From an uncultured Bacilli bacterium (GTDB lineage Bacteria; Bacillota_I; Bacilli_A; RF39; UBA660): DNA of 64,000 nucleotides. Shown here one piece after another: positions 23,163 through 44,830 of the stretch. The stretch is taken from contig CAJUIY010000001.1 of the NCBI GenBank assembly GCA_910586865.1, positions 19,828-83,827 on the forward strand, written 5' to 3'. How positions within the stretch are numbered: the stretch's first letter is position 1; each line of letters opens with the position of its first letter. A program made the translations under genes and the position numbers. The notes under the pieces were generated by a model. That model ran no database searches, had not been told where the DNA came from, and saw nothing but the letters and a program-made list of their open reading frames with translations.

Positions 23163-23192
23163 AACTTGGAAATTCCAAGTTTTTTTATTTTT
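23163..23192. terminator. bidirectional rho-independent terminator after rpsD
   Basis: AACTTGG-AAATT-CCAAGTT then T-rich run, with an A-run upstream. Confidence 0.6.
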
Positions 23193-23718
23193 CTAACTCT
23201 ATGTTACAACAATTTTCAATTTTTATTTTGGATAAATCACTAGTTAAATCGGTCTTCTTAATAAGATGATATAAAGCTTTAATAACCGCTCCATGTGCTA
23301 CTACTAATATTCTTTGATTACCATAATTTTCTTCTAAATCCATTAAAAATTCTTTACATCTTTTCATTAAATCCTGAATCGGTTCTACCTTATCTTCTTT
23401 ATAATTTAAGAAGTAATCCCAGTACTTTTTAGAATCATAAAGGTCTACACTCTTTCCTTCTAAATTTCCTAAATTCCGTTCTTCTAGTCTTTTATCAACT
23501 TGAATTAAAACTCTATCTCCTACTAGAATCATGGCTGTTTCTACGGTTCGCATTAAAGGAGAAGTAAAACAGATATCAAAATTCATATCTTTTAACTCAT
23601 CCTTCAACTTGTAACACTCTCTTCTACCAGTATCATTTAAAGGAATATTACTTTTTCCTTGGAGAATTTTCCTTTCATTATATTCTGTTGTTCCATGTCT
23701 CACTAATACAATTTTCAC
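23185..23718 (-). CDS. histidine phosphatase (phosphoglycerate mutase) family protein
   Basis: N-terminal LVRHGTTEYN RHG motif; AHG near the C-terminus. Confidence 0.8.
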   Translation of the reverse strand: MKIVLVRHGTTEYNERKILQGKSNIPLNDTGRRECYKLKDELKDMNFDICFTSPLMRTVETAMILVGDRVLIQVDKRLEERNLGNLEGKSVDLYDSKKYWDYFLNYKEDKVEPIQDLMKRCKEFLMDLEENYGNQRILVVAHGAVIKALYHLIKKTDLTSDLSKIKIENCCNIELEK

Positions 23719-24947
23719 TATTTTCCTCCAATCAACTTTCCAGATTTCGTATAATGAATAAAGTTTGCCACATAACTATGATCATCATAAGTAGAGTAAC
23801 CACTTATTAAATACCCATTCTTCTTTAATTTTATATCAGTAAAATAATCATCTTTTTCATCTCCATATATTTCTATGAATTGTTCTTTTAAATCCGTATC
23901 ATATTTAGCCAAAATACCATCATAAGAAAACACATTAACTTTATCGGTGGATTTCTTTTTATTATATACTCCTGTTTGTCCAGCAATCACAATATTTTGT
24001 TTATCATCAAGAAGAACTCTATTGAATCGTTCCATTCCGTCTTTTTTGTAAGTAGCTTCTCCTATTTTGTTAAGATCCAAATCATATTTCACTAATAAAC
24101 CATCTGTATCATAATCTTGTTTATCTTCTTTCACTTTTTTACCACCAACAACATATAAATAATTTCCGTCACTTACCATTCCAGTAAAACCAAAACTATC
24201 TGTAAACTCATAATTAACCGTATTTATTCTTTCCAAATTAGGAGTATATTTTGAAACAATCCCTACATTAGAAGCGTCTTTTCCTACCGTATAAAGAAAT
24301 TCTCCATTTATTATAATATCATTATAAATTCCTGACTTAGATCCACCATAATTACTTCTTGCAATTTCTTTTAAATTCTTATCGTATTTAACAATAAAAC
24401 CCCCACCTTCATCCGAAAAGCCAAGTGTCATATTCTCATAGATACTTTGACCAACAACAAGATAACCATCATCCACCACTAAAACATTGGTAAATTTAGA
24501 ATTCCCTAGTACTTGAAACGTATTTTCAACGATTTTTTCACCATCTAAATCATATTTTACAATAAGAACCGAACGAACACCATCCTCATGCTCTTTTTTA
24601 TTTTTCTCTATACTTCCAACAGCGATATAAGAATCATTATCTTTTTTTACACTAAAATAACTACTATTATATTTGTTATTATAAAGTTTTTCCCATTTCT
24701 TATTATCATTTTCATCATAAAGGGTTATTTTTGCTTTCTCAAAGCCATTTTCATTATTATTATTACTTCCAACGGCAATATAAGAATCCTCTAGAATTTC
24801 GAAACCATTGATACTATCAAAATACGTTTTCTTCGTGTTATTATCTTTATATAAAAATAGAACAAATGCATCTATTATTAAAACAACTATGCAAAAAATA
24901 ACAATACTTCTTAAAACTATTTTTAATTTATGATTCACTAGCAACAA
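23718..24947 (-). CDS. membrane-anchored repeat protein, hypothetical (beta-propeller-like Y..VG repeats)
   Basis: N-terminal transmembrane helix, then repeated YIAVGS/YLVVGQ/YTVGKD/YVVGGK/VIAGQT units. Confidence 0.4.
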   Translation of the reverse strand: MLLVNHKLKIVLRSIVIFCIVVLIIDAFVLFLYKDNNTKKTYFDSINGFEILEDSYIAVGSNNNNENGFEKAKITLYDENDNKKWEKLYNNKYNSSYFSVKKDNDSYIAVGSIEKNKKEHEDGVRSVLIVKYDLDGEKIVENTFQVLGNSKFTNVLVVDDGYLVVGQSIYENMTLGFSDEGGGFIVKYDKNLKEIARSNYGGSKSGIYNDIIINGEFLYTVGKDASNVGIVSKYTPNLERINTVNYEFTDSFGFTGMVSDGNYLYVVGGKKVKEDKQDYDTDGLLVKYDLDLNKIGEATYKKDGMERFNRVLLDDKQNIVIAGQTGVYNKKKSTDKVNVFSYDGILAKYDTDLKEQFIEIYGDEKDDYFTDIKLKKNGYLISGYSTYDDHSYVANFIHYTKSGKLIGGK

Positions 24948-24953
24948 CTCCTT

Positions 24954-26186
24954 TTAAATGAATTCTATAATATAATATTTCTTTTTTCCTTTTCTAATAA
25001 TTACATATTTCTGTTCTATAGACACACTTCTAGTAACCTGAAACTCTAAATCTACTTCTCTTTCTCCATTGATATAGATGGAACCATTGGTAATAAACTC
25101 ACGTGCTTCCCTCTTACTAGTACAAATATTACTAGTTACTAATAAATCTACCAAGTTTAATTCTTCCTCTATCATCATTGGTGGAATGCCTTTAAAAGCC
25201 ATTTCAATATCAGAAGATGTAAAGGATTTCATATTGCCACTAAATAAAGCTTCACTAATTTTTACCGCTTGTTCATATTCTTTTTCTCCATGTAAGAAAG
25301 TAATCACTTCTTTTGCTAATGTTTTTTGGGCAATTCTTTTTTCTGGTTGTTTATTATGTTCATCTAATATCTTCTCAATCTCTTGCTTTGATAGAAAAGT
25401 ATAGACTTTTAAATAATTATCCATCATAATATCCTCAAAATTGATTAGATATTGATATAATTCATAACTAGATGTTTTCTCTTTGTCTAACCATAAAGCA
25501 TTTCCTTCACTTTTTCCAATCTTTTTTCCAGTAGAATCGAGTGTTAGTGGACAAGAAAAAGCATATACAGATTCATCATTTAATTTTCTTATTAATTCAA
25601 TACCCGTCGTTAAATTTCCCCATTGATCGGAGCCTCCAAATTGCAAGGTAGCCCCATAGTGATCATGAATATATTTAAAATCATATCCCTGTATTAACAT
25701 ATAAGAAAACTCTGCATAGGAAATTCCGGATTCCATTTGTCTTTTTACTAAATCCTTATTAATCATATAAGACACGTTCACATACTTACCAATATCTCTT
25801 AAAAAGTCGATAAAATTATAGTTTTGAAACCAATCATAGTTATTAACTACTAGCGTATCTTCTCCAAATAACTTTTTCATCTGAATCTTTATTTTTTCAA
25901 AATTATTTTCTACCACTTTTATATCCGACTTTTCTCTTTCCTTTGTACCTCTAGGATCCCCAACTCGTCCAGTAGCTCCTCCCACCAAAATAATAGGTTT
26001 ATGCCCCCCTCTTCTTAATCTTTCAATAACCAAAAAGGTTGGAAGTTGCCCAATATGTAGGCTATCGGCAGAAGGATCCGCACCAATATAGAAAGTCAAC
26101 CCTCCTTGATTTATTTTATCTTCTAAGTCCTCTCCAGCGGTATCTTTTATTAATCCTCTCCATTTTAAATCTTCAAATAATGTCAT
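24954..26186 (-). CDS. tyrS: tyrosine--tRNA ligase
   Basis: HIGH-type motif SLHIGQ, KMSKS-type motif KIGKS, C-terminal S4 domain. Confidence 0.92.
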   Translation of the reverse strand: MTLFEDLKWRGLIKDTAGEDLEDKINQGGLTFYIGADPSADSLHIGQLPTFLVIERLRRGGHKPIILVGGATGRVGDPRGTKEREKSDIKVVENNFEKIKIQMKKLFGEDTLVVNNYDWFQNYNFIDFLRDIGKYVNVSYMINKDLVKRQMESGISYAEFSYMLIQGYDFKYIHDHYGATLQFGGSDQWGNLTTGIELIRKLNDESVYAFSCPLTLDSTGKKIGKSEGNALWLDKEKTSSYELYQYLINFEDIMMDNYLKVYTFLSKQEIEKILDEHNKQPEKRIAQKTLAKEVITFLHGEKEYEQAVKISEALFSGNMKSFTSSDIEMAFKGIPPMMIEEELNLVDLLVTSNICTSKREAREFITNGSIYINGEREVDLEFQVTRSVSIEQKYVIIRKGKKKYYIIEFI

Positions 26187-26189
26187 TTT

Positions 26190-26729
26190 TTAATCCTCCT
26201 CAAATACCAAATTTTTCATCTTTTCTAAGTCATAACCATAATCTGAATAAATTCCTTCCACATCTTTTGTGGTTATCTTCTCTTTATCAATTTCTAGTCG
26301 ATTCAAAGTTTCATAAACTTCTTTTTCACATTTTCCTTCAATCTCTAAATAAGTAGGAATAAATGGCCAACTATCCATATCAATTTCTACTCCATCTAAT
26401 AGATATTGGCATCTTCTATTTTCTTGATATCCTTTTGGTCGATATCCCAACTCATTAAGAATTAAATTTGTTTTTTCAAAATCATCTACTTCAATTTCTA
26501 ACTCTTTTGTGCCATCTATTTTTTCTGAAACAATGTCTTTTATAGTAAGTGTAGTCACCTCTCCATTCGTTCTTAAGCGAATCCATTTCTTATCCTGTTT
26601 TGGTATGAAATCATAAACATATCTTCTTTGTAAATAATCAAATTTTTTTACTGCTCCCAAACTCTCTAACTTCTTTGTAATCTTATCTACATCAATTTCC
26701 AATATTCTTACTTCAAATTCCGTATTCAT
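26190..26729 (-). CDS. CYTH-domain protein (triphosphate tunnel metalloenzyme)
   Basis: N-terminal EFEVRILEID ExExK motif, ~180 aa. Confidence 0.7.
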   Translation of the reverse strand: MNTEFEVRILEIDVDKITKKLESLGAVKKFDYLQRRYVYDFIPKQDKKWIRLRTNGEVTTLTIKDIVSEKIDGTKELEIEVDDFEKTNLILNELGYRPKGYQENRRCQYLLDGVEIDMDSWPFIPTYLEIEGKCEKEVYETLNRLEIDKEKITTKDVEGIYSDYGYDLEKMKNLVFEED

Positions 26730-26734
26730 CCTTA

Positions 26735-27238
26735 TTATCTTCTCCTTCCACCTTGTATTACTTTCAATTTCGCTTTCTGCTTCTCATGTTCCATTAAATT
26801 TAATCTCTCATTTATTAAAAACATAGATACTTTATATTTTTTTGATAATCTCCTATTATTCATACCTTTTTCAATATCCGTTTTAAATATCTTTTCTGGC
26901 ATTAATAATTTTAATGCATAATGATAAGCTTTTTTATCAAAAGACTCTTCTTCCAAAAGACCTTTACTAAAATACCCCTCATTATAATATAATTGAATAT
27001 AACAATACATATAAGTACTTATAAATCTCCTCGCTTTTTTTGATACTTTTTTATTAATATAGATACCATTCCATGACGAATCAATAACAGATAGAGCCCT
27101 ATAATCTTTCATCACCATAGATGGAGTTGACATTACTGTTATTCCAGAATCTCGAATCACTTTTCCTATATTTGGAACTCTATTAACATTTAATTGTTCA
27201 AGTAGTAAATCCTGACGATATATTTTTAAATTTTTCAT
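26735..27238 (-). CDS. ImmA/IrrE-like protein with degenerate HExxH (H->Y at all three His positions), hypothetical
   Basis: FISTYMYCYIQLY occupies the position of FTxAHELGHxxLH, and a C-terminal ALKLLMPE follows. First gene downstream of the Tyr T-box leader, with an AGGAGG ribosome-binding site. Confidence 0.35.
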   Translation of the reverse strand: MKNLKIYRQDLLLEQLNVNRVPNIGKVIRDSGITVMSTPSMVMKDYRALSVIDSSWNGIYINKKVSKKARRFISTYMYCYIQLYYNEGYFSKGLLEEESFDKKAYHYALKLLMPEKIFKTDIEKGMNNRRLSKKYKVSMFLINERLNLMEHEKQKAKLKVIQGGRRR

Positions 27239-27450
27239 AAAACCTCCTAAAACAAAAACTATCCATCCAAATAAGGACGAATAGTTCGTGGTACCACCTT
27301 AATTCATGAAAGAATCATGCACTCATTATCTTAACGCGAATAAACGATTTTTCTCCTAATAGGTAATTCATACTTATCATTATCTTAGTTTACACCAACC
27401 ACTAAGTCTCTTTTAGTAATTACTAAGTACTACTTGTTATTAATCATTGA
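27239..27450 (-). promoter_or_regulatory. T-box riboswitch leader, probable Tyr specifier, controlling the 26735-tyrS operon
   Basis: Minus-strand RNA has AGAGA (GA motif), then AAUUAAGGUGGUACCACGA (T-box; + coords 27288-27299), then a terminator CUAUUCGUCC-UUAUUU-GGAUGGAUAG followed by UUUUUGUUUU (27249-27284), then AGGAGG. Candidate specifier UAC at 27363-27365. Confidence 0.7.
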
Positions 27451-27495
27451 AAATTATATATTCACTATATCATATCTATCAATAAAAATAAAGTA

Positions 27496-40089: not shown

Positions 40090-40893
40090 TTACCTTCTAG
40101 ACTTTAAATATCTTTTCACTTCTTTTGTATTTTTATAATCAATGCTCATAATCTCATCTAATCGCTTCATATTTAGATTGGCGTCATATTCTCTATTAAA
40201 GGATCTCATGAAGCTTTTTGCTCGTGCATAACCCTTGGATGGAAGGTCTCCATTGGCATACAACAAACTAAGCATTACTAACTTTAAAGTTTCATCTCTT
40301 AATACAATACTATCCTTATGATTTAAAACACGTTTCTCTAATTCTTGATAATCTATTTTCTGCGGATTTCTTTGTAATATACTATATAAATCTTCTACAC
40401 TTTCAATTTGTTCAGTATCTTCTAAAAATTCGTCTTTTTTTAATTCCCATATATCAAGGTCATCGATGACTCCTTCGGAATCAACAGAAATGAGCTTCCG
40501 ATGGGGAAAATCATAGGAATCATTCTTTGTTAAAGTAATCATTCCACCATAACTACATTTTAAAAAGCTTAATTGATCATGGCGTAATTGATACTGAAGT
40601 TGTTTCATATCCAATAATTTTGATAATTGAATACACCTATCAAGTTCTGCATCTTCTTCTCTAGATACCCATCCCACACTATCCAACATTTTTGATGGAT
40701 ATTTAAATTCATAAAAACGAGTAATCTGATTAATTAAATCTTGAATTTCATTTAAACTCAATATCGTAGAAAAGTTCTTTTTTCGCATTCTATTAAAGTG
40801 AGATAAAAATTTAGGATTTCTTTTAACAATATACTCCTTATTATCTAGTTTTTCAAAATTCTCCCATTCTATTCCAAGCATATGATATCGCAT
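40090..40893 (-). CDS. hypothetical protein (267 aa)
   Basis: ORF only. Confidence 0.35.
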   Translation of the reverse strand: MRYHMLGIEWENFEKLDNKEYIVKRNPKFLSHFNRMRKKNFSTILSLNEIQDLINQITRFYEFKYPSKMLDSVGWVSREEDAELDRCIQLSKLLDMKQLQYQLRHDQLSFLKCSYGGMITLTKNDSYDFPHRKLISVDSEGVIDDLDIWELKKDEFLEDTEQIESVEDLYSILQRNPQKIDYQELEKRVLNHKDSIVLRDETLKLVMLSLLYANGDLPSKGYARAKSFMRSFNREYDANLNMKRLDEIMSIDYKNTKEVKRYLKSRR

Positions 40894-40953: not shown

Positions 40954-43900
40954 CTATTTTACTACAATATTTACTATTTTGTCTTTAATTACAATTATTT
41001 TTACTATGGTTCCGTTTTTTGTATGATTAACTACATTTTCAGCATGTAAGGCTTTCTCTTTTATTTCTTCTTCGGAATCATTCTCCGTTATTTTAATCGT
41101 TGCACGAACTTTTCCATTGACTTGAACGGCTATTTCTTTCTCGTCTTCTTTTGTTTTTTCTTCCTCATAAGTTGGCCAAGATTCAAAAGCAATTGTATCT
41201 TTATGCCCTAACATCTCCCACAATTCTTCCGCAATATGAGGTGCTACTGGATTTAAAAGTTTTACAAAGCCTAAAGCATACTCTTTTGGAAAAACATCTT
41301 CTTTATAGACGGCATTAATAAAAATCATCATTTGACTAATAGCCGTATTAAAATTAAGTGTTTCAAAATCATTTGTAACCTTTTTTACTGTTTGATGATA
41401 TATTTTTTCTAGATTTTGATTTTCTTCTTCTTTTATCTTTCCAGATTCATAAAGTCGGTAGATTCGATCTAAGAATTTTTGAGCTCCTTCTACGCCTTGT
41501 TGGCTCCATGGTTTAGAAGCTTCTAATGGTCCCATAAACATTTCATAAAGTCTTAGAGTATCTGCTCCATAATCATTCACAATATCTAGGGGATTTACTA
41601 CATATTTAGGATATCTTTTTCCCATTTTAATTCCATTCGAACCCAAAATCATTCCTTGGTGAACTAATTTTTTAAATGGTTCTGCAACAGGAGATAATCC
41701 TTTGTCATATAAATAACGATTCCAAATTCTTGCATACATCAAATGACCAACAGCATGTTCAGGACCGCCAATATATAAATCGACTGGCATCCAATGTTTT
41801 AATAGTTCAGAGTTTGCAAAACAATCATCATTATCAGGATCAATATATCTTAAGAAATACCAAGAAGATCCAGCTGTACCTGGCATCGTAGAAGTTTCTC
41901 TAACACCTTTTAATCCATTCTTTTCATACACTTTCCAATCCGTTGCATTTTCAAGTGGAGCCTTACCATTATGACCTTTATAATCTTCAAGTTCTGGTAA
42001 AACAAGCGGAAGTTCCTCATCATCTAAAACATGAATACTACCATCTTCTAAATAAACAACTGGCATTGGTTCTCCCCAATATCGTTGACGAGCAAAAATC
42101 CATTCTCTCATACGATAATTTACTTGCTCTTTTCCACAATTATTTGTTTCCAACCAATGAATCATGGTATCAATTGCTTCTTTTTTATTCATTCCATTTA
42201 AATCTAAGAAGTGATGATTCTCTACATTTTTAGAATATTCATAGGTTCTCGCATGTAGCTCATCTTTGATTTCTGCATCCACCATATCCTTCGATACCCA
42301 TTCCACTAAAAAGTCTTCATCATCGTCTAAGTTTTGACTGTCTTTTTTGTCATTTATTAACTTAAATAAAAATCCTGTTGAAATAATATTAAAATAGATA
42401 TCTTTATTATAAGCATAATAATGATGATTAATCTTTGGTAGAACAGCCACCAATTCGATATTTTGGTAACCAGTTTCCTCCTTTACTTCTCTTAAAGCAC
42501 ATTCATATGGAGTCTCTCCCTCATTAATGGAACCTCCTATAAATAAACGACCACCATTATTCCCCCAATTAATAGTTAAATATTTATCATTCTTTTCATC
42601 ATAAACAATAGCAACAATAGAATTCTTATGTTTTTCATTTTCGTGAGGATTTCCAGTAATATCTAATGGTGGACAAGAATTGATATGGATTCCATCTTCT
42701 GTCATCGCACCTTCACCATTTATTACACGACTAGCATCATACTTATGTGCTTCCGTAGTTAAGGAATCGATTAATTTTTCTTCCTCTATCCATAAAACAT
42801 CTGCTAAATTAGATTCCTCTTTTGCTCTATCTTGCTTTTCTAAGCTATTTAATTTACCAACAATAGTATGACATGTAATATGACGATTCACATCTTTATG
42901 AGCAGCATAGAAATTATCAAAATAAATAAACTCTAATTCTTTATCTATTGTTATATCCGTATATCCTGTTTCTTCAACTACTTCTCTAATACCAGCTTCC
43001 ATTGGTGTTTCATCATCTTCAATACCACCCATTACAAAGTTAATCCAATTAAACTCTTTATTATGAACACATAAGTATTTATTTTCCGTTGGATGTTTTA
43101 TCACAACATTAACAACATTTCTCTCGGTCATTTTCTTATCTTCTCTAATAGTAGATTCTCCTGTACCTACAAATGACTTAGCTAGTACTTGAACTATAGG
43201 AATATCAAACTTTTTAGCGAATTCATAATCTCTCTCATCGTGAGCAGGAACAGCCATAATAGCTCCCGTTCCATAGCTTGCTAAAACATAATCCGAAATA
43301 TAAATAGGTATTTCTTTTTTATTGACAGGATTAATCGCATAAGCACCAATAAACACTCCTGTTTTATCATGATTAAGTTCCGTTCTTTCTAATTCGCTTT
43401 TTTTGGCACACTCTTCCTTGTACTTTCTTACTTCTTCCTTCTTATCTTCGGTTGTTATGATATCAACAAGTTTATGTTCTGGGGAAAGTACACAATAAGT
43501 AGCACCAAATAAGGTATCGCATCTAGTCGTAAACACCTTAAATTCTTTATCTGTATCTTTCACTTGGAAGGTTACTTGAGCACCGATTGATTTTCCAATC
43601 CAGTTTCTTTGCATTTCTTTTGTCGATTCTGGCCAATCAACTTCTTCTAAACCTTCTAATAATTTTTCAGCAAAAGCAGCTTGATCAATAACCCATTGCT
43701 TCATATTTTTACGAATAACAGGAAATCCACCTCTCTCACTTTTTCCATCAATTACTTCATCATTTGATAAAACTGTACCTAACTCTTCACACCAGTTAAC
43801 TGGCATATCAATATATTTGGCATAACCATCTAAATATAGTTGTTTAAAAATCCACTGTGTCCATTTATAAAACTTTGGATCACTTGTTTTCACAAGTCTA

Positions 43901-44262
43901 CTCCAATCATAATCAAAGCTTAAAGACTCTAATTGTTTCGTAAAGGTCTCAATATTCTTTTCCGTAAACCCGTTCGGATGATTTCCTGTTGTTACTGCAT
44001 ACTGTTCAGCAGGAAGTCCAAAAGAATCATATCCCATTGGATGAAGTACATTATATCCTTGCATTCTCTTCATTCTAGAAATGATATCCGTTGCAGTATA
44101 CCCTTCTGGATGTCCAGCATGAAGTCCTGCTCCTGATGGATAAGGAAACATATCCAAACAATAAAACTTTGGTTTACTAAAATCCCAAATATCCGTTTTA
44201 AACGTCTTATGGTCCTTCCAATATTTTCTCCATTTTTTTTCTATTTCTTTAAAATTATACAT
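40954..44262 (-). CDS. leuS: leucine--tRNA ligase carrying two internal NUDIX hydrolase domains
   Basis: HIGH region [16 protein letters not shown], editing-domain [28 protein letters not shown]-terminal anticodon-binding region. Two Nudix boxes lie inside. Start placed at [15 protein letters not shown], overlapping the upstream small-ORF stop as ATGTATAA. ORF-track start is 44307. Confidence 0.9.
42211..42675 (-). other. NUDIX domain 2 embedded in LeuRS (Nudix box [24 protein letters not shown] at nt 42469..42537)
   Basis: Perfect Nudix box. Flanking [18 protein letters not shown] and EWVSKDMV elements. Confidence 0.75.
42733..43131 (-). other. NUDIX domain 1 embedded in LeuRS (Nudix box [23 protein letters not shown] at nt 42961..43029)
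   Basis: Perfect GX5EX7REUXEEXGU spacing. Flanking [13 protein letters not shown] and LWIEEEKL elements fit the Nudix fold. Confidence 0.75.
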
Positions 44263-44608
44263 GTTTAACCAATCCTTTCTTTTTATAATATCTACCAATA
44301 AATCCATAGCTTACCATTACAATAGGAACCGTTAAGAGGAGTGCTACCAAAAGCTGAATAAATGTACTATCAAACAAGAATGTAATGGCAACTAATACCG
44401 TTATATCTAAGGAACTAACAATGGATACTACATTTAATAATCTCTGATAATTAACCTTTTTCATATCAATATGATACCGATAAATTAAATAATTTACTTC
44501 TGATAATTGTTTTTTTGTTTTCCCCTTTTTATACCTTTTCAGGATAAACATTTGATAAATTAGAAGAATAAACAGAAATATTAAAACAAAAAGAACAAAT
44601 TGCTTCAT
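44255..44608 (-). CDS. small membrane protein encoded between the Leu T-box leader and leuS
   Basis: Strong ribosome-binding site AAGGAGG 7 nt before the ATG. Three hydrophobic helices. Stop overlaps the leuS start. Confidence 0.45.
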
Positions 44609-44830
44609 AGAATGCCTCCTTAAATAAAAAAAGTCCCTATCATATAAGGACGAATTTTTTCCGTGGTACCACCTTACTTCATATCAAATATGCAGCTTAA
44701 TAGAGATAAAGGTCTTACCCTTAATATTATTAGGATAGTCAAGTTCATCATTCTCTTCCATCTATTTCCACCAATCATAGACTCTCTAAAGGAAAAAGAA
44801 TCACTACTGCTACTACCAATATTTAAAATA
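44609..44830 (-). promoter_or_regulatory. T-box riboswitch leader with Leu (CUU) specifier upstream of small ORF + leuS
   Basis: Minus-strand RNA has UAGAGAG (GA motif), UGGUGGAAAUAGAUGG, a specifier loop ...AUGAACUUGACU (CUU = revcomp of 44741-43), the T-box AAGGUGGUACCACGG (+ 44661-44673), and a terminator GUCCUUAUAUGAUAGGGAC followed by U7 (44626-44651). Promoter TTGAAA-N17-TATACT at 44837-44865. Confidence 0.7.

Follow-up and report, generated by a model that had tools for sequence, protein, structure and literature searches.

Dinucleotides of the diadenosine tetraphosphate (Ap4A) type arise in cells chiefly from aminoacyl-tRNA synthetases, and whether these compounds are signal or waste has long been debated. 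Synthetases make Ap3-5N and p4A, Nudix enzymes act as the 'asymmetrical' Ap4A hydrolases, and Gram-positive bacteria otherwise use YqeK (PMC7705103, PMC4734340). In one group of related systems, lysyl-tRNA synthetase (LysRS) with NUDT2 in mammals and RppH/NudH in proteobacteria, synthetase-made Ap4A is degraded in trans by a Nudix enzyme (PMC7705103, PMC4734340). Whereas synthetase and hydrolase are separate proteins there, we describe here a leucyl-tRNA synthetase (LeuRS) into which the presumed hydrolase is built. It is encoded by leuS on the minus strand of a 64,000-nucleotide stretch of DNA (the window) from an uncultured Bacilli bacterium (assembly GCA_910586865.1, contig CAJUIY010000001.1, positions 19,828 to 83,827), and it carries two Nudix modules, hereafter N1 and N2.

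Results

Judged by its domains and motifs, the window LeuRS is complete: the HIGH motif, the predicted editing site, and the anticodon-binding and C-terminal domains are all intact (Table 1; residues are numbered on the 1117-aa reading of the frame unless stated otherwise). Pfam places tRNA-synt_1 at aa 26-237, the LeuRS editing domain PF13603 at aa 234-378 (E=6e-60, profile positions 1-143 of 185 only), Anticodon_1 at aa 966-1080 and NUDIX in two stretches, while the TIGR00396 leuS_bact equivalog is reached with 978.6 bits against a cut-off of 548.4. When N1 and N2 were each scanned alone against NUDIX (PF00293), both exceeded the cut-off of 21.1 bits. An original prediction, made from the letters of the window without database searches, had proposed that two complete canonical Nudix domains, each with an exact box, lie in an uninterrupted LeuRS on either side of a native piece; our data agree on each of these points, and the coordinates given for the insert region were accurate.

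The placement of the modules has to be revised, as they had been assigned to the LeuRS core. Alignment to Thermus thermophilus LeuRS ends at residue 364 and resumes at ~390, from which we deduce that ~320 extra residues stand where that enzyme has a short variable hairpin, close to the C-terminus of CP1, the editing domain. By this alignment, N1 and N2 occupy two neighbouring surface loops at that end of CP1, not the catalytic core. N1 takes the insertion site that is usual in LeuRS, with IPIVQV before it and the GxGxHINS strand after it; N2 follows the INS strand, ~15 residues downstream of the N2-type site in single-insert LeuRS.

Structure prediction points the same way as the profile searches with regard to fold. 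The full-length AlphaFold2 (AF2) model had a mean predicted local distance difference test (pLDDT) score of 82.7 and a predicted template modelling score (pTM) of 0.72, with pLDDT >90 for the LeuRS body and N2. N1 fell below 50 in this run because MAFFT had stacked every single-insert homologue under N2; modelled with an N1-type alignment, it reached pLDDT 93.3 and pTM 0.86 with standard Nudix topology. N1 and N2 are thus each confidently predicted to fold as a Nudix domain. They share only 24% identity with one another, as against 70-79% for each with modules in other proteins; a recent tandem duplication was rejected as their origin, given this low identity and the closer match of each to LeuRS modules of other species. 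Because Nudix fold, full catalytic box and purifying selection (see below) coincide, the protein is presumably a LeuRS joined to two active pyrophosphohydrolases.

Table 1. Positions of the leuS features, given on the window, and of the standalone CP1-Nudix genes of two relatives, given on their own sequences
Feature	Residues (aa)	Coordinates	Strand	Basis or remark
leuS	1102-aa protein	40954..44262	(-)	LeuRS with two Nudix inserts; Pfam, NCBIfam, T. thermophilus alignment
Catalytic domain, N-terminal half		43606..44262	(-)	Pfam and T. thermophilus LeuRS alignment
HIGH motif, reads HAGH	63-66	44110..44121	(-)	Motif located
CP1 editing domain, main part		43174..43605	(-)	PF13603; aligned to T. 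thermophilus LeuRS through residue 364
T-rich editing motif TTRCDT, intact		43513..43530	(-)	Motif located
Editing motif AHDERD (within AVPAHDERD), intact		43228..43245	(-)	Motif located
Nudix module N1	379-525	42733..43173	(-)	Pfam NUDIX E=2.1e-10, 41.2 bits
N1 Nudix box	427-449	42961..43029	(-)	Exact GX5EX7REUXEEXGU
Native CP1 strand and linker	526-544	42676..42732	(-)	Aligns with GDGxHINS strand of insert-free relatives
Nudix module N2	545-699	42211..42675	(-)	Pfam NUDIX E=1.2e-15, 58.2 bits
N2 Nudix box	592-614	42466..42534	(-)	Exact GX5EX7REUXEEXGU
CP1 end, catalytic second half, anticodon-binding and C-terminal domains		40957..42210	(-)	Pfam, alignment
KMSKS loop, reads KMGKR	894-898	41614..41628	(-)	K1, M2 and K4 retained
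Small membrane-protein ORF	117-aa protein	44255..44608	(-)	Ribosome binding site AAGGAGG; stop overlaps leuS start
T-box leader RF00230		44643..44823	(-)	99.6 bits against gathering score 93
T-box specifier CUU (Leu codon)		44741..44743	(-)	Read from alignment as GAA-CUU-G
T-box terminator hairpin and U-run		~44624..44652	(-)	3' of T-box leader
CP1-Nudix standalone gene, L087		10001..10855		Shortened, motif-degenerate CP1 and N2-type Nudix
CP1-Nudix standalone gene, L089		6001..6831		Shortened, motif-degenerate CP1 and N2-type Nudix

An identical 1102-aa protein occurs on 13 independently assembled contigs (NCBI metagenome-assembled genome (MAG) GCA_950059425.1, JGI 3300006149, ENA and several Logan runs), all with the same neighbour genes. 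A ~97% identical allele has the same two-Nudix architecture, and the 90% cluster of this LeuRS holds four full-length variants. Between the window gene and L097, the most diverged variant of the same architecture, dN/dS (omega) was 0.032 for the LeuRS backbone, 0.097 for N1 (21 synonymous, 10 non-synonymous changes) and 0.060 for N2 (30 synonymous, 10 non-synonymous), so that N1 and N2 together hold 51 synonymous and 20 non-synonymous changes. By these counts, N1 and N2 evolve under strong purifying selection. Mis-assembly or a pseudogene was rejected on the open frame, the 13 contigs and an omega far below 1 in all parts of the gene. That the locus is an assembly artefact or a decaying second leuS copy is a practically negligible alternative, for which we found no supporting point and which also conflicts with the Leu T-box upstream and with a G+C content that is equal in inserts and flanks. 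The same lack of compositional difference led us to reject foreign, recently acquired inserts. As a side observation from the comparison with L097, dS was 0.30 and 0.45 in the Nudix modules (42211..43173) and 0.12-0.22 in the backbone; the counts are small, and the difference may hint at separate recombination histories of the modules.

To place this architecture among its nearest kin, we examined the 80 LeuRS nearest to that of the window among GTDB species representatives, which are uncultured gut Bacilli variously entered as Tenericutes, Mycoplasmatota, Erysipelotrichaceae, Clostridium sp. CAG:609 and Candidatus Coprovivens. About 55 of these have no insert, 20 a single N2-type and 3 a single N1-type module, and none of the 80 has both together. 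Backbone identity to the window LeuRS, listed for the N-terminal core, CP1, post-insert region and C-terminal region, is 94/83/84/89% for a relative with N2 only (L008), 89/86/85/82% for one with N1 only (L007) and 85/84/84/79% for one without a module (L026). Backbones this similar with differing content imply that module gain, loss or exchange is fast. In single-insert LeuRS, N1-type and N2-type modules alike sit between IPIxQV and the GxGxHINS strand, and in P0147, a protein from the Candidate Phyla Radiation (CPR), two modules stand directly in tandem ahead of the strand. The window order, N1 before and N2 after the strand, is therefore a variant of its own, and it recurs in the partial protein P0001.

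Such turnover, in which 84-94% identical backbones carry zero, N1, N2 or both, is also what one would expect if the modules were housekeeping Nudix enzymes, for example NTP or NDP-X pyrophosphatases, that hitch-hike in tolerant loops of a gene that is essential and well expressed, and are uncoupled from LeuRS. The wider distribution of the clade bears on this alternative. A search with the insert region returned >100 LeuRS fragments with PF13603 or PF00133 plus PF00293, from 'Bacilli bacterium' MAGs and from CPR/Patescibacteria (Parcubacteria, Saccharibacteria, Liptonbacteria, Kaiserbacteria, Paceibacterota); where named at all, they are called 'class I tRNA ligase family protein', 'leucine--tRNA ligase' or 'hypothetical protein'. 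HMMER, run exhaustively over 1.84 billion cluster representatives, gave 514 matches at E<=1e-3 and 182 at E<=1e-10. Classification of the best 150 representatives yielded 82 LeuRS bodies with Nudix (70 with one module, 10 with two, 2 with three), 20 combinations of a CP1 piece and Nudix, 42 in which Nudix stands alone, among them complete free-standing proteins of 154-190 aa, and 6 fragments. Insertion sites, approximate as they were taken from BLAST segment ends, fall at the C-terminal hairpin of CP1 (site A, 67 domains), the N-terminal junction of CP1 (site B, 8 domains), the first CP1 hairpin (site C, 8 domains) and the catalytic core (site D, 4 domains). Copies within one protein are 21-47% identical, and each has closer relatives in other proteins. 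On this evidence, many gut Bacilli and CPR/Patescibacteria have a LeuRS into which one and the same Nudix clade is inserted, with one to three copies per protein, and the sites number about four in all.

While the original prediction had regarded the architecture as unfamiliar, Nudix-bearing LeuRS thus turn out to be common in public metagenomic data, including CPR forms with two or three modules. Our literature search found no publication on a LeuRS-Nudix protein; a Dus2 'Nudix' fusion in the literature was set aside, as it concerns only the zinc ribbon of NADH pyrophosphatase. LeuRS and Nudix enzymes are each well known, and what appears undescribed in the literature searched is their recurrent union at multiple sites, the two-loop arrangement and the split form with a CP1 relic. 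PADLOC gave weak matches only (PDC-S07, 26 bits; KwaB, 18 bits), and a link to defence systems was dropped for this reason.

Several features of individual clade members were observed alongside. Among CPR-type LeuRS (P0121, P0122, P0126, P0127, P0140, P0168, P0079, P0116), two or three modules occur at sites B, C and D, and some of these proteins hold unrelated inserts (see below). A few unrelated fusions of the clade were found, namely with Ser_hydrolase (P0254) and with a second Nudix (P0175). In P0168 and P0254, W is abundant where G is expected, which suggests that these genes come from UGA-recoded lineages and were translated with the wrong table.

The Nudix box was compared across the clade. 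The strict box is retained in 208 of 257 clade domains; its columns belong to the best conserved of the family, and the box is matched in full and exactly by both N1 and N2. These observations run counter to the modules being non-catalytic, that is, ligand sensors or structural or tRNA-binding appendages. This explanation could draw on the 49 of 257 domains that fail the strict box and on altered boxes in some CPR copies (E to Q, displaced R; P0111 and P0121-d2 type), but we hold it to be very improbable.

A different kind of evidence comes from genomes in which the original gene seems to have been taken apart. In two rabbit-gut MAGs, a T-box and a small ORF are followed in the operon by a gene for a 276-284-aa protein and then by a canonical leuS of 806 aa. 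The 276-284-aa protein combines a CP1 remnant with a Nudix part, the latter far better conserved; of the T-rich motif little is left in the remnant, and one conserved Asp, the GTG loop and the helical subdomain are gone. The 806-aa leuS is of another backbone type, ~50% identical to the window LeuRS, and the CP1 remnant scores 62-65 bits to window-type CP1 against 40-43 bits to CP1 of the neighbouring leuS. The split form therefore looks like the product of displacement of an old leuS of which CP1-Nudix alone was kept. Among cluster representatives, 13 such split forms were found, and N1-type versions occur as well (P0134, P0138). Moreover, two chimeric LeuRS (P0001, P0018) have an N-terminal catalytic part that is 87-88% identical to the type-B LeuRS of L087 and a CP1 with Nudix that is 78% identical to the window (type A), pointing to recombination at the CP1 boundaries. 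Finally, a prolyl-tRNA synthetase (ProRS; P0182) has a Nudix of the same clade between its anticodon-binding and C-terminal domains, and a second, 50% identical ProRS (P0272) bears a Nudix of the clade at the same position; only these two diverged examples were found.

Taken together, several LeuRS sites, CP1-relic-Nudix proteins beside leuS, chimeras and capture by ProRS indicate that the link between clade and synthetase is repeatedly preserved, and the split form and the chimeras argue that it is under selection. Hitch-hiking would account for the persistence of CP1 fragments only through their packing against the Nudix fold, and it fits the free-standing clade members in ordinary contexts, as well as the unrelated domains inserted in some CPR LeuRS (alpha/beta hydrolase, P0079; DUF559 endonuclease-like, P0116). 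It fits less well with multidomain hosts that are LeuRS in 82 of 83 cases and ProRS in one, at several sites, among the 150 best representatives, nor does it readily explain why the CP1-Nudix piece stayed in the same operon after the gene body was displaced, or why the chimeras preserve CP1-Nudix. We therefore regard hitch-hiking as possible but doubtful. A general link of free-standing members to synthetase genes is not claimed: one adjoins thrS and one a valS-like gene, while two other neighbourhoods are unrelated.

With respect to substrate, the nearest structure to N1 is 2azw, a MutT/nudix family protein of Enterococcus faecalis, followed by ApnA hydrolases, DIPP-type and decapping enzymes. 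Structural neighbours include Rv2985 (diadenosine polyphosphatase), Thermus Ndx1 (Ap6A hydrolase) and NUDT6 and, further down, fungal and oomycete decapping effectors and DIPP/DDP1 enzymes. Foldseek also returned CT771 with Ap4A products, Escherichia coli RppH, its complexes with Ap4A and RNA among the entries, and an Aquifex Ap4A hydrolase. ADP-ribose and NTP pyrophosphatases score only slightly lower than the ApnA and cap enzymes, so that the neighbourhood of N1 leans to polyphosphate-chain substrates (ApnA, caps) with a weak preference. In RppH and Ap4A-hydrolase Nudix enzymes, an aromatic Tyr stands ~17 residues after the box; as a lead only, we read Y at +16, +17 and +19 in N2, and F at +17 and Y at +18 in N1.

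Concerning the gene itself and its surroundings, the minus-strand open reading frame (ORF) 40954..44307 is open over 1117 aa without interruption, as had been stated, but the protein is shorter than proposed. The frame begins 15 codons too early, and leuS probably starts at ATG 44262, giving 1102 aa, because homologous LeuRS proteins begin at matching residues, gene callers chose this start in 12 of the 13 contigs encoding this LeuRS, and it overlaps the stop codon of an upstream 117-aa ORF (ATGTATAA). The KMGKR variant of the KMSKS loop also occurs in the relatives L056, which is insert-free, and L057, whereas L080 has KMSKS. The predicted Leu-specifier T-box is confirmed, with the qualification that the 117-aa ORF intervenes between it and leuS. 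This ORF, the first gene behind the T-box, has a strong ribosome binding site and encodes a two-helix membrane protein with no Pfam match. Whether or not their LeuRS has a Nudix insert, relatives have a homologous small ORF (117-156 aa) ahead of leuS, and one precedes the standalone CP1-Nudix gene too; T-boxes are likewise found upstream of leuS in relatives. From the leader, the leuS operon is predicted to be controlled by a Leu (CUU) T-box; together with the backbone omega of 0.03, this makes the gene look like a working leuS. Directly downstream lies a 267-aa ORF (40090..40893, minus strand), which has no Pfam match and keeps its position on all contigs carrying this leuS.

Elsewhere in the window, a second T-box (27270..27456, minus strand, 115.8 bits) heads a five-gene operon (23185..27456) in the order Peptidase_M78-like, CYTH-domain protein, tyrS, a 409-aa protein without a Pfam match, and histidine phosphatase. 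By this layout, a further synthetase gene of the window shares its transcript with genes of the phosphohydrolase type. Triphosphates are the substrates of CYTH enzymes, and synthetases are able to adenylate tripolyphosphate.

Discussion

In this study, we found the LeuRS of a gut Bacilli bacterium to carry two Nudix modules in neighbouring loops of CP1, and traced the same Nudix clade through the LeuRS of other gut Bacilli and of CPR bacteria. The function that we tentatively favour, at somewhat less than even confidence, is that the modules hydrolyse dinucleoside polyphosphates (ApnN) or related by-products of the synthetase. Under such a mechanism, the substrates would be polyphosphate-bridged nucleotides that aminoacyl-adenylate chemistry yields as side products, namely Ap4A, Ap3A, other ApnN and possibly p4A. 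The two diverged modules would probably cover different substrates, and these reduced genomes may be without other hydrolases for such compounds. The Ap4A idea fits both the structural neighbours (ApnA hydrolases, DIPP-type and decapping enzymes) and the capture of the clade by ProRS. As ProRS is an unrelated, class II synthetase, this capture favours a link to adenylate chemistry, which is common to all synthetases, and speaks against one to CP1 editing itself. Hydrolysis of the aminoacyl-adenylate itself would be chemically atypical of Nudix enzymes.

Several observations weigh against ApnN hydrolysis. The equivalog hidden Markov models (HMMs) for RppH, YtkD and MutT were all far below their cut-offs (best scores of 48.1 bits against 118 for RppH, PRK00714, and 47.2 against 154.4 for YtkD, TIGR02705). 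Sequence matches of N1 and N2 in the PDB are at box level only (E ~1e-3), with similarity to solved Nudix proteins confined to the box, and the best structural match, 2azw, is without an assigned function. Many synthetases make Ap4A, so a tether specific to LeuRS is not obviously needed. With ~55 of the 80 closest LeuRS having no insert, the modules are, to judge from these sequences, dispensable in close relatives; and the free-standing clade members lie mostly in unrelated gene neighbourhoods.

Some of the structural evidence would also serve for an RNA-end hydrolase akin to RppH or decapping enzymes, for which LeuRS, and especially CP1 as the domain that receives the tRNA acceptor end, would be an RNA-binding platform. 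Candidate targets would be RNA 5' ends with two or three phosphates, NAD or Np4N caps, or a tRNA end that bears a phosphate. RppH-RNA complexes, Dcp2, AvrM14 and the oomycete and fungal decapping effectors are among the nearest sequence or structure matches, most insertion sites are within or at the edge of CP1, and the split form retains the CP1 scaffold despite decayed editing motifs, which suggests a need for CP1 beyond editing. Nevertheless, some copies reside far from any CP1, within ProRS or the LeuRS catalytic core, mature tRNAs carry a 5' monophosphate, and the RppH and YtkD HMM cut-offs were not reached; we consider such a role unlikely. More speculative still, and in our estimation quite improbable, is that the modules provide a previously unrecognised quality control or repair of RNA ends presented by the synthetase (for example, removal of Np4N or NAD caps, 5'-polyphosphates or a tRNA 3'-pyrophosphate block), or an obligatory sink in cis that couples ApnN alarmones to leucine charging. 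If true, either would explain both the repeated re-attachment of the clade to LeuRS, occasionally to ProRS, and the preserved CP1 scaffold in the split gene.

A recurrent synthetase-Nudix fusion with one to three copies, several sites, a split form and a ProRS counterpart offers a direct handle on the question of whether Ap4A is signal or waste. Our findings also mark leuS of gut Bacilli and CPR bacteria as a hot spot of domain gain, loss and recombination, and flag a large protein family that lies behind generic names in public records.

Compared with known systems, the window protein aligns with bacterial LeuRS (T. thermophilus 1h3n and 2byt, E. coli 4aq7) over its full length except for the inserts (E=3e-194 to 1h3n). 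It differs from them in the ~320 residues that stand in place of the ~25-residue variable hairpin of the T. thermophilus enzyme (residues ~365-389), in reading KMGKR for KMSKS and in having no long leucine-specific domain. With the Nudix ApnA hydrolases and RppH (E. coli RppH, 7sp3/4s2y; Chlamydia CT771, 4mpo; Thermus Ndx1, 1vc8; Mycobacterium tuberculosis Rv2985, 9cxx; Aquifex, 3i7u), N1 has the Nudix fold and the full box in common, at 12-23% identity; those enzymes are free-standing, whereas the window module is embedded in a synthetase. The structural genomics entry 2azw, 20% identical, is free-standing too and brings no information on substrate. A class Ia synthetase with an unrelated enzyme domain is likewise represented by NCBIfam NF040702 (isoleucine--tRNA ligase, N-acetyltransferase domain-containing), but there the extra domain is a GNAT, and what matches this model in the window protein is the synthetase part alone (45.7 bits, cut-off 1999).

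The split form has its own parallel. AlaX, YbaK/ProX and ThrRS-ed are free-standing homologues of synthetase editing domains, and we know of no described free-standing CP1 domain. The 276-296-aa proteins with degenerate CP1 and Nudix that lie beside leuS in relatives of the window resemble the AlaX type in being standalone editing domains, and indicate that CP1 is able to survive as a free-standing scaffold. They differ from that type in that their CP1 is without most editing motifs and acts as a carrier of the Nudix domain.

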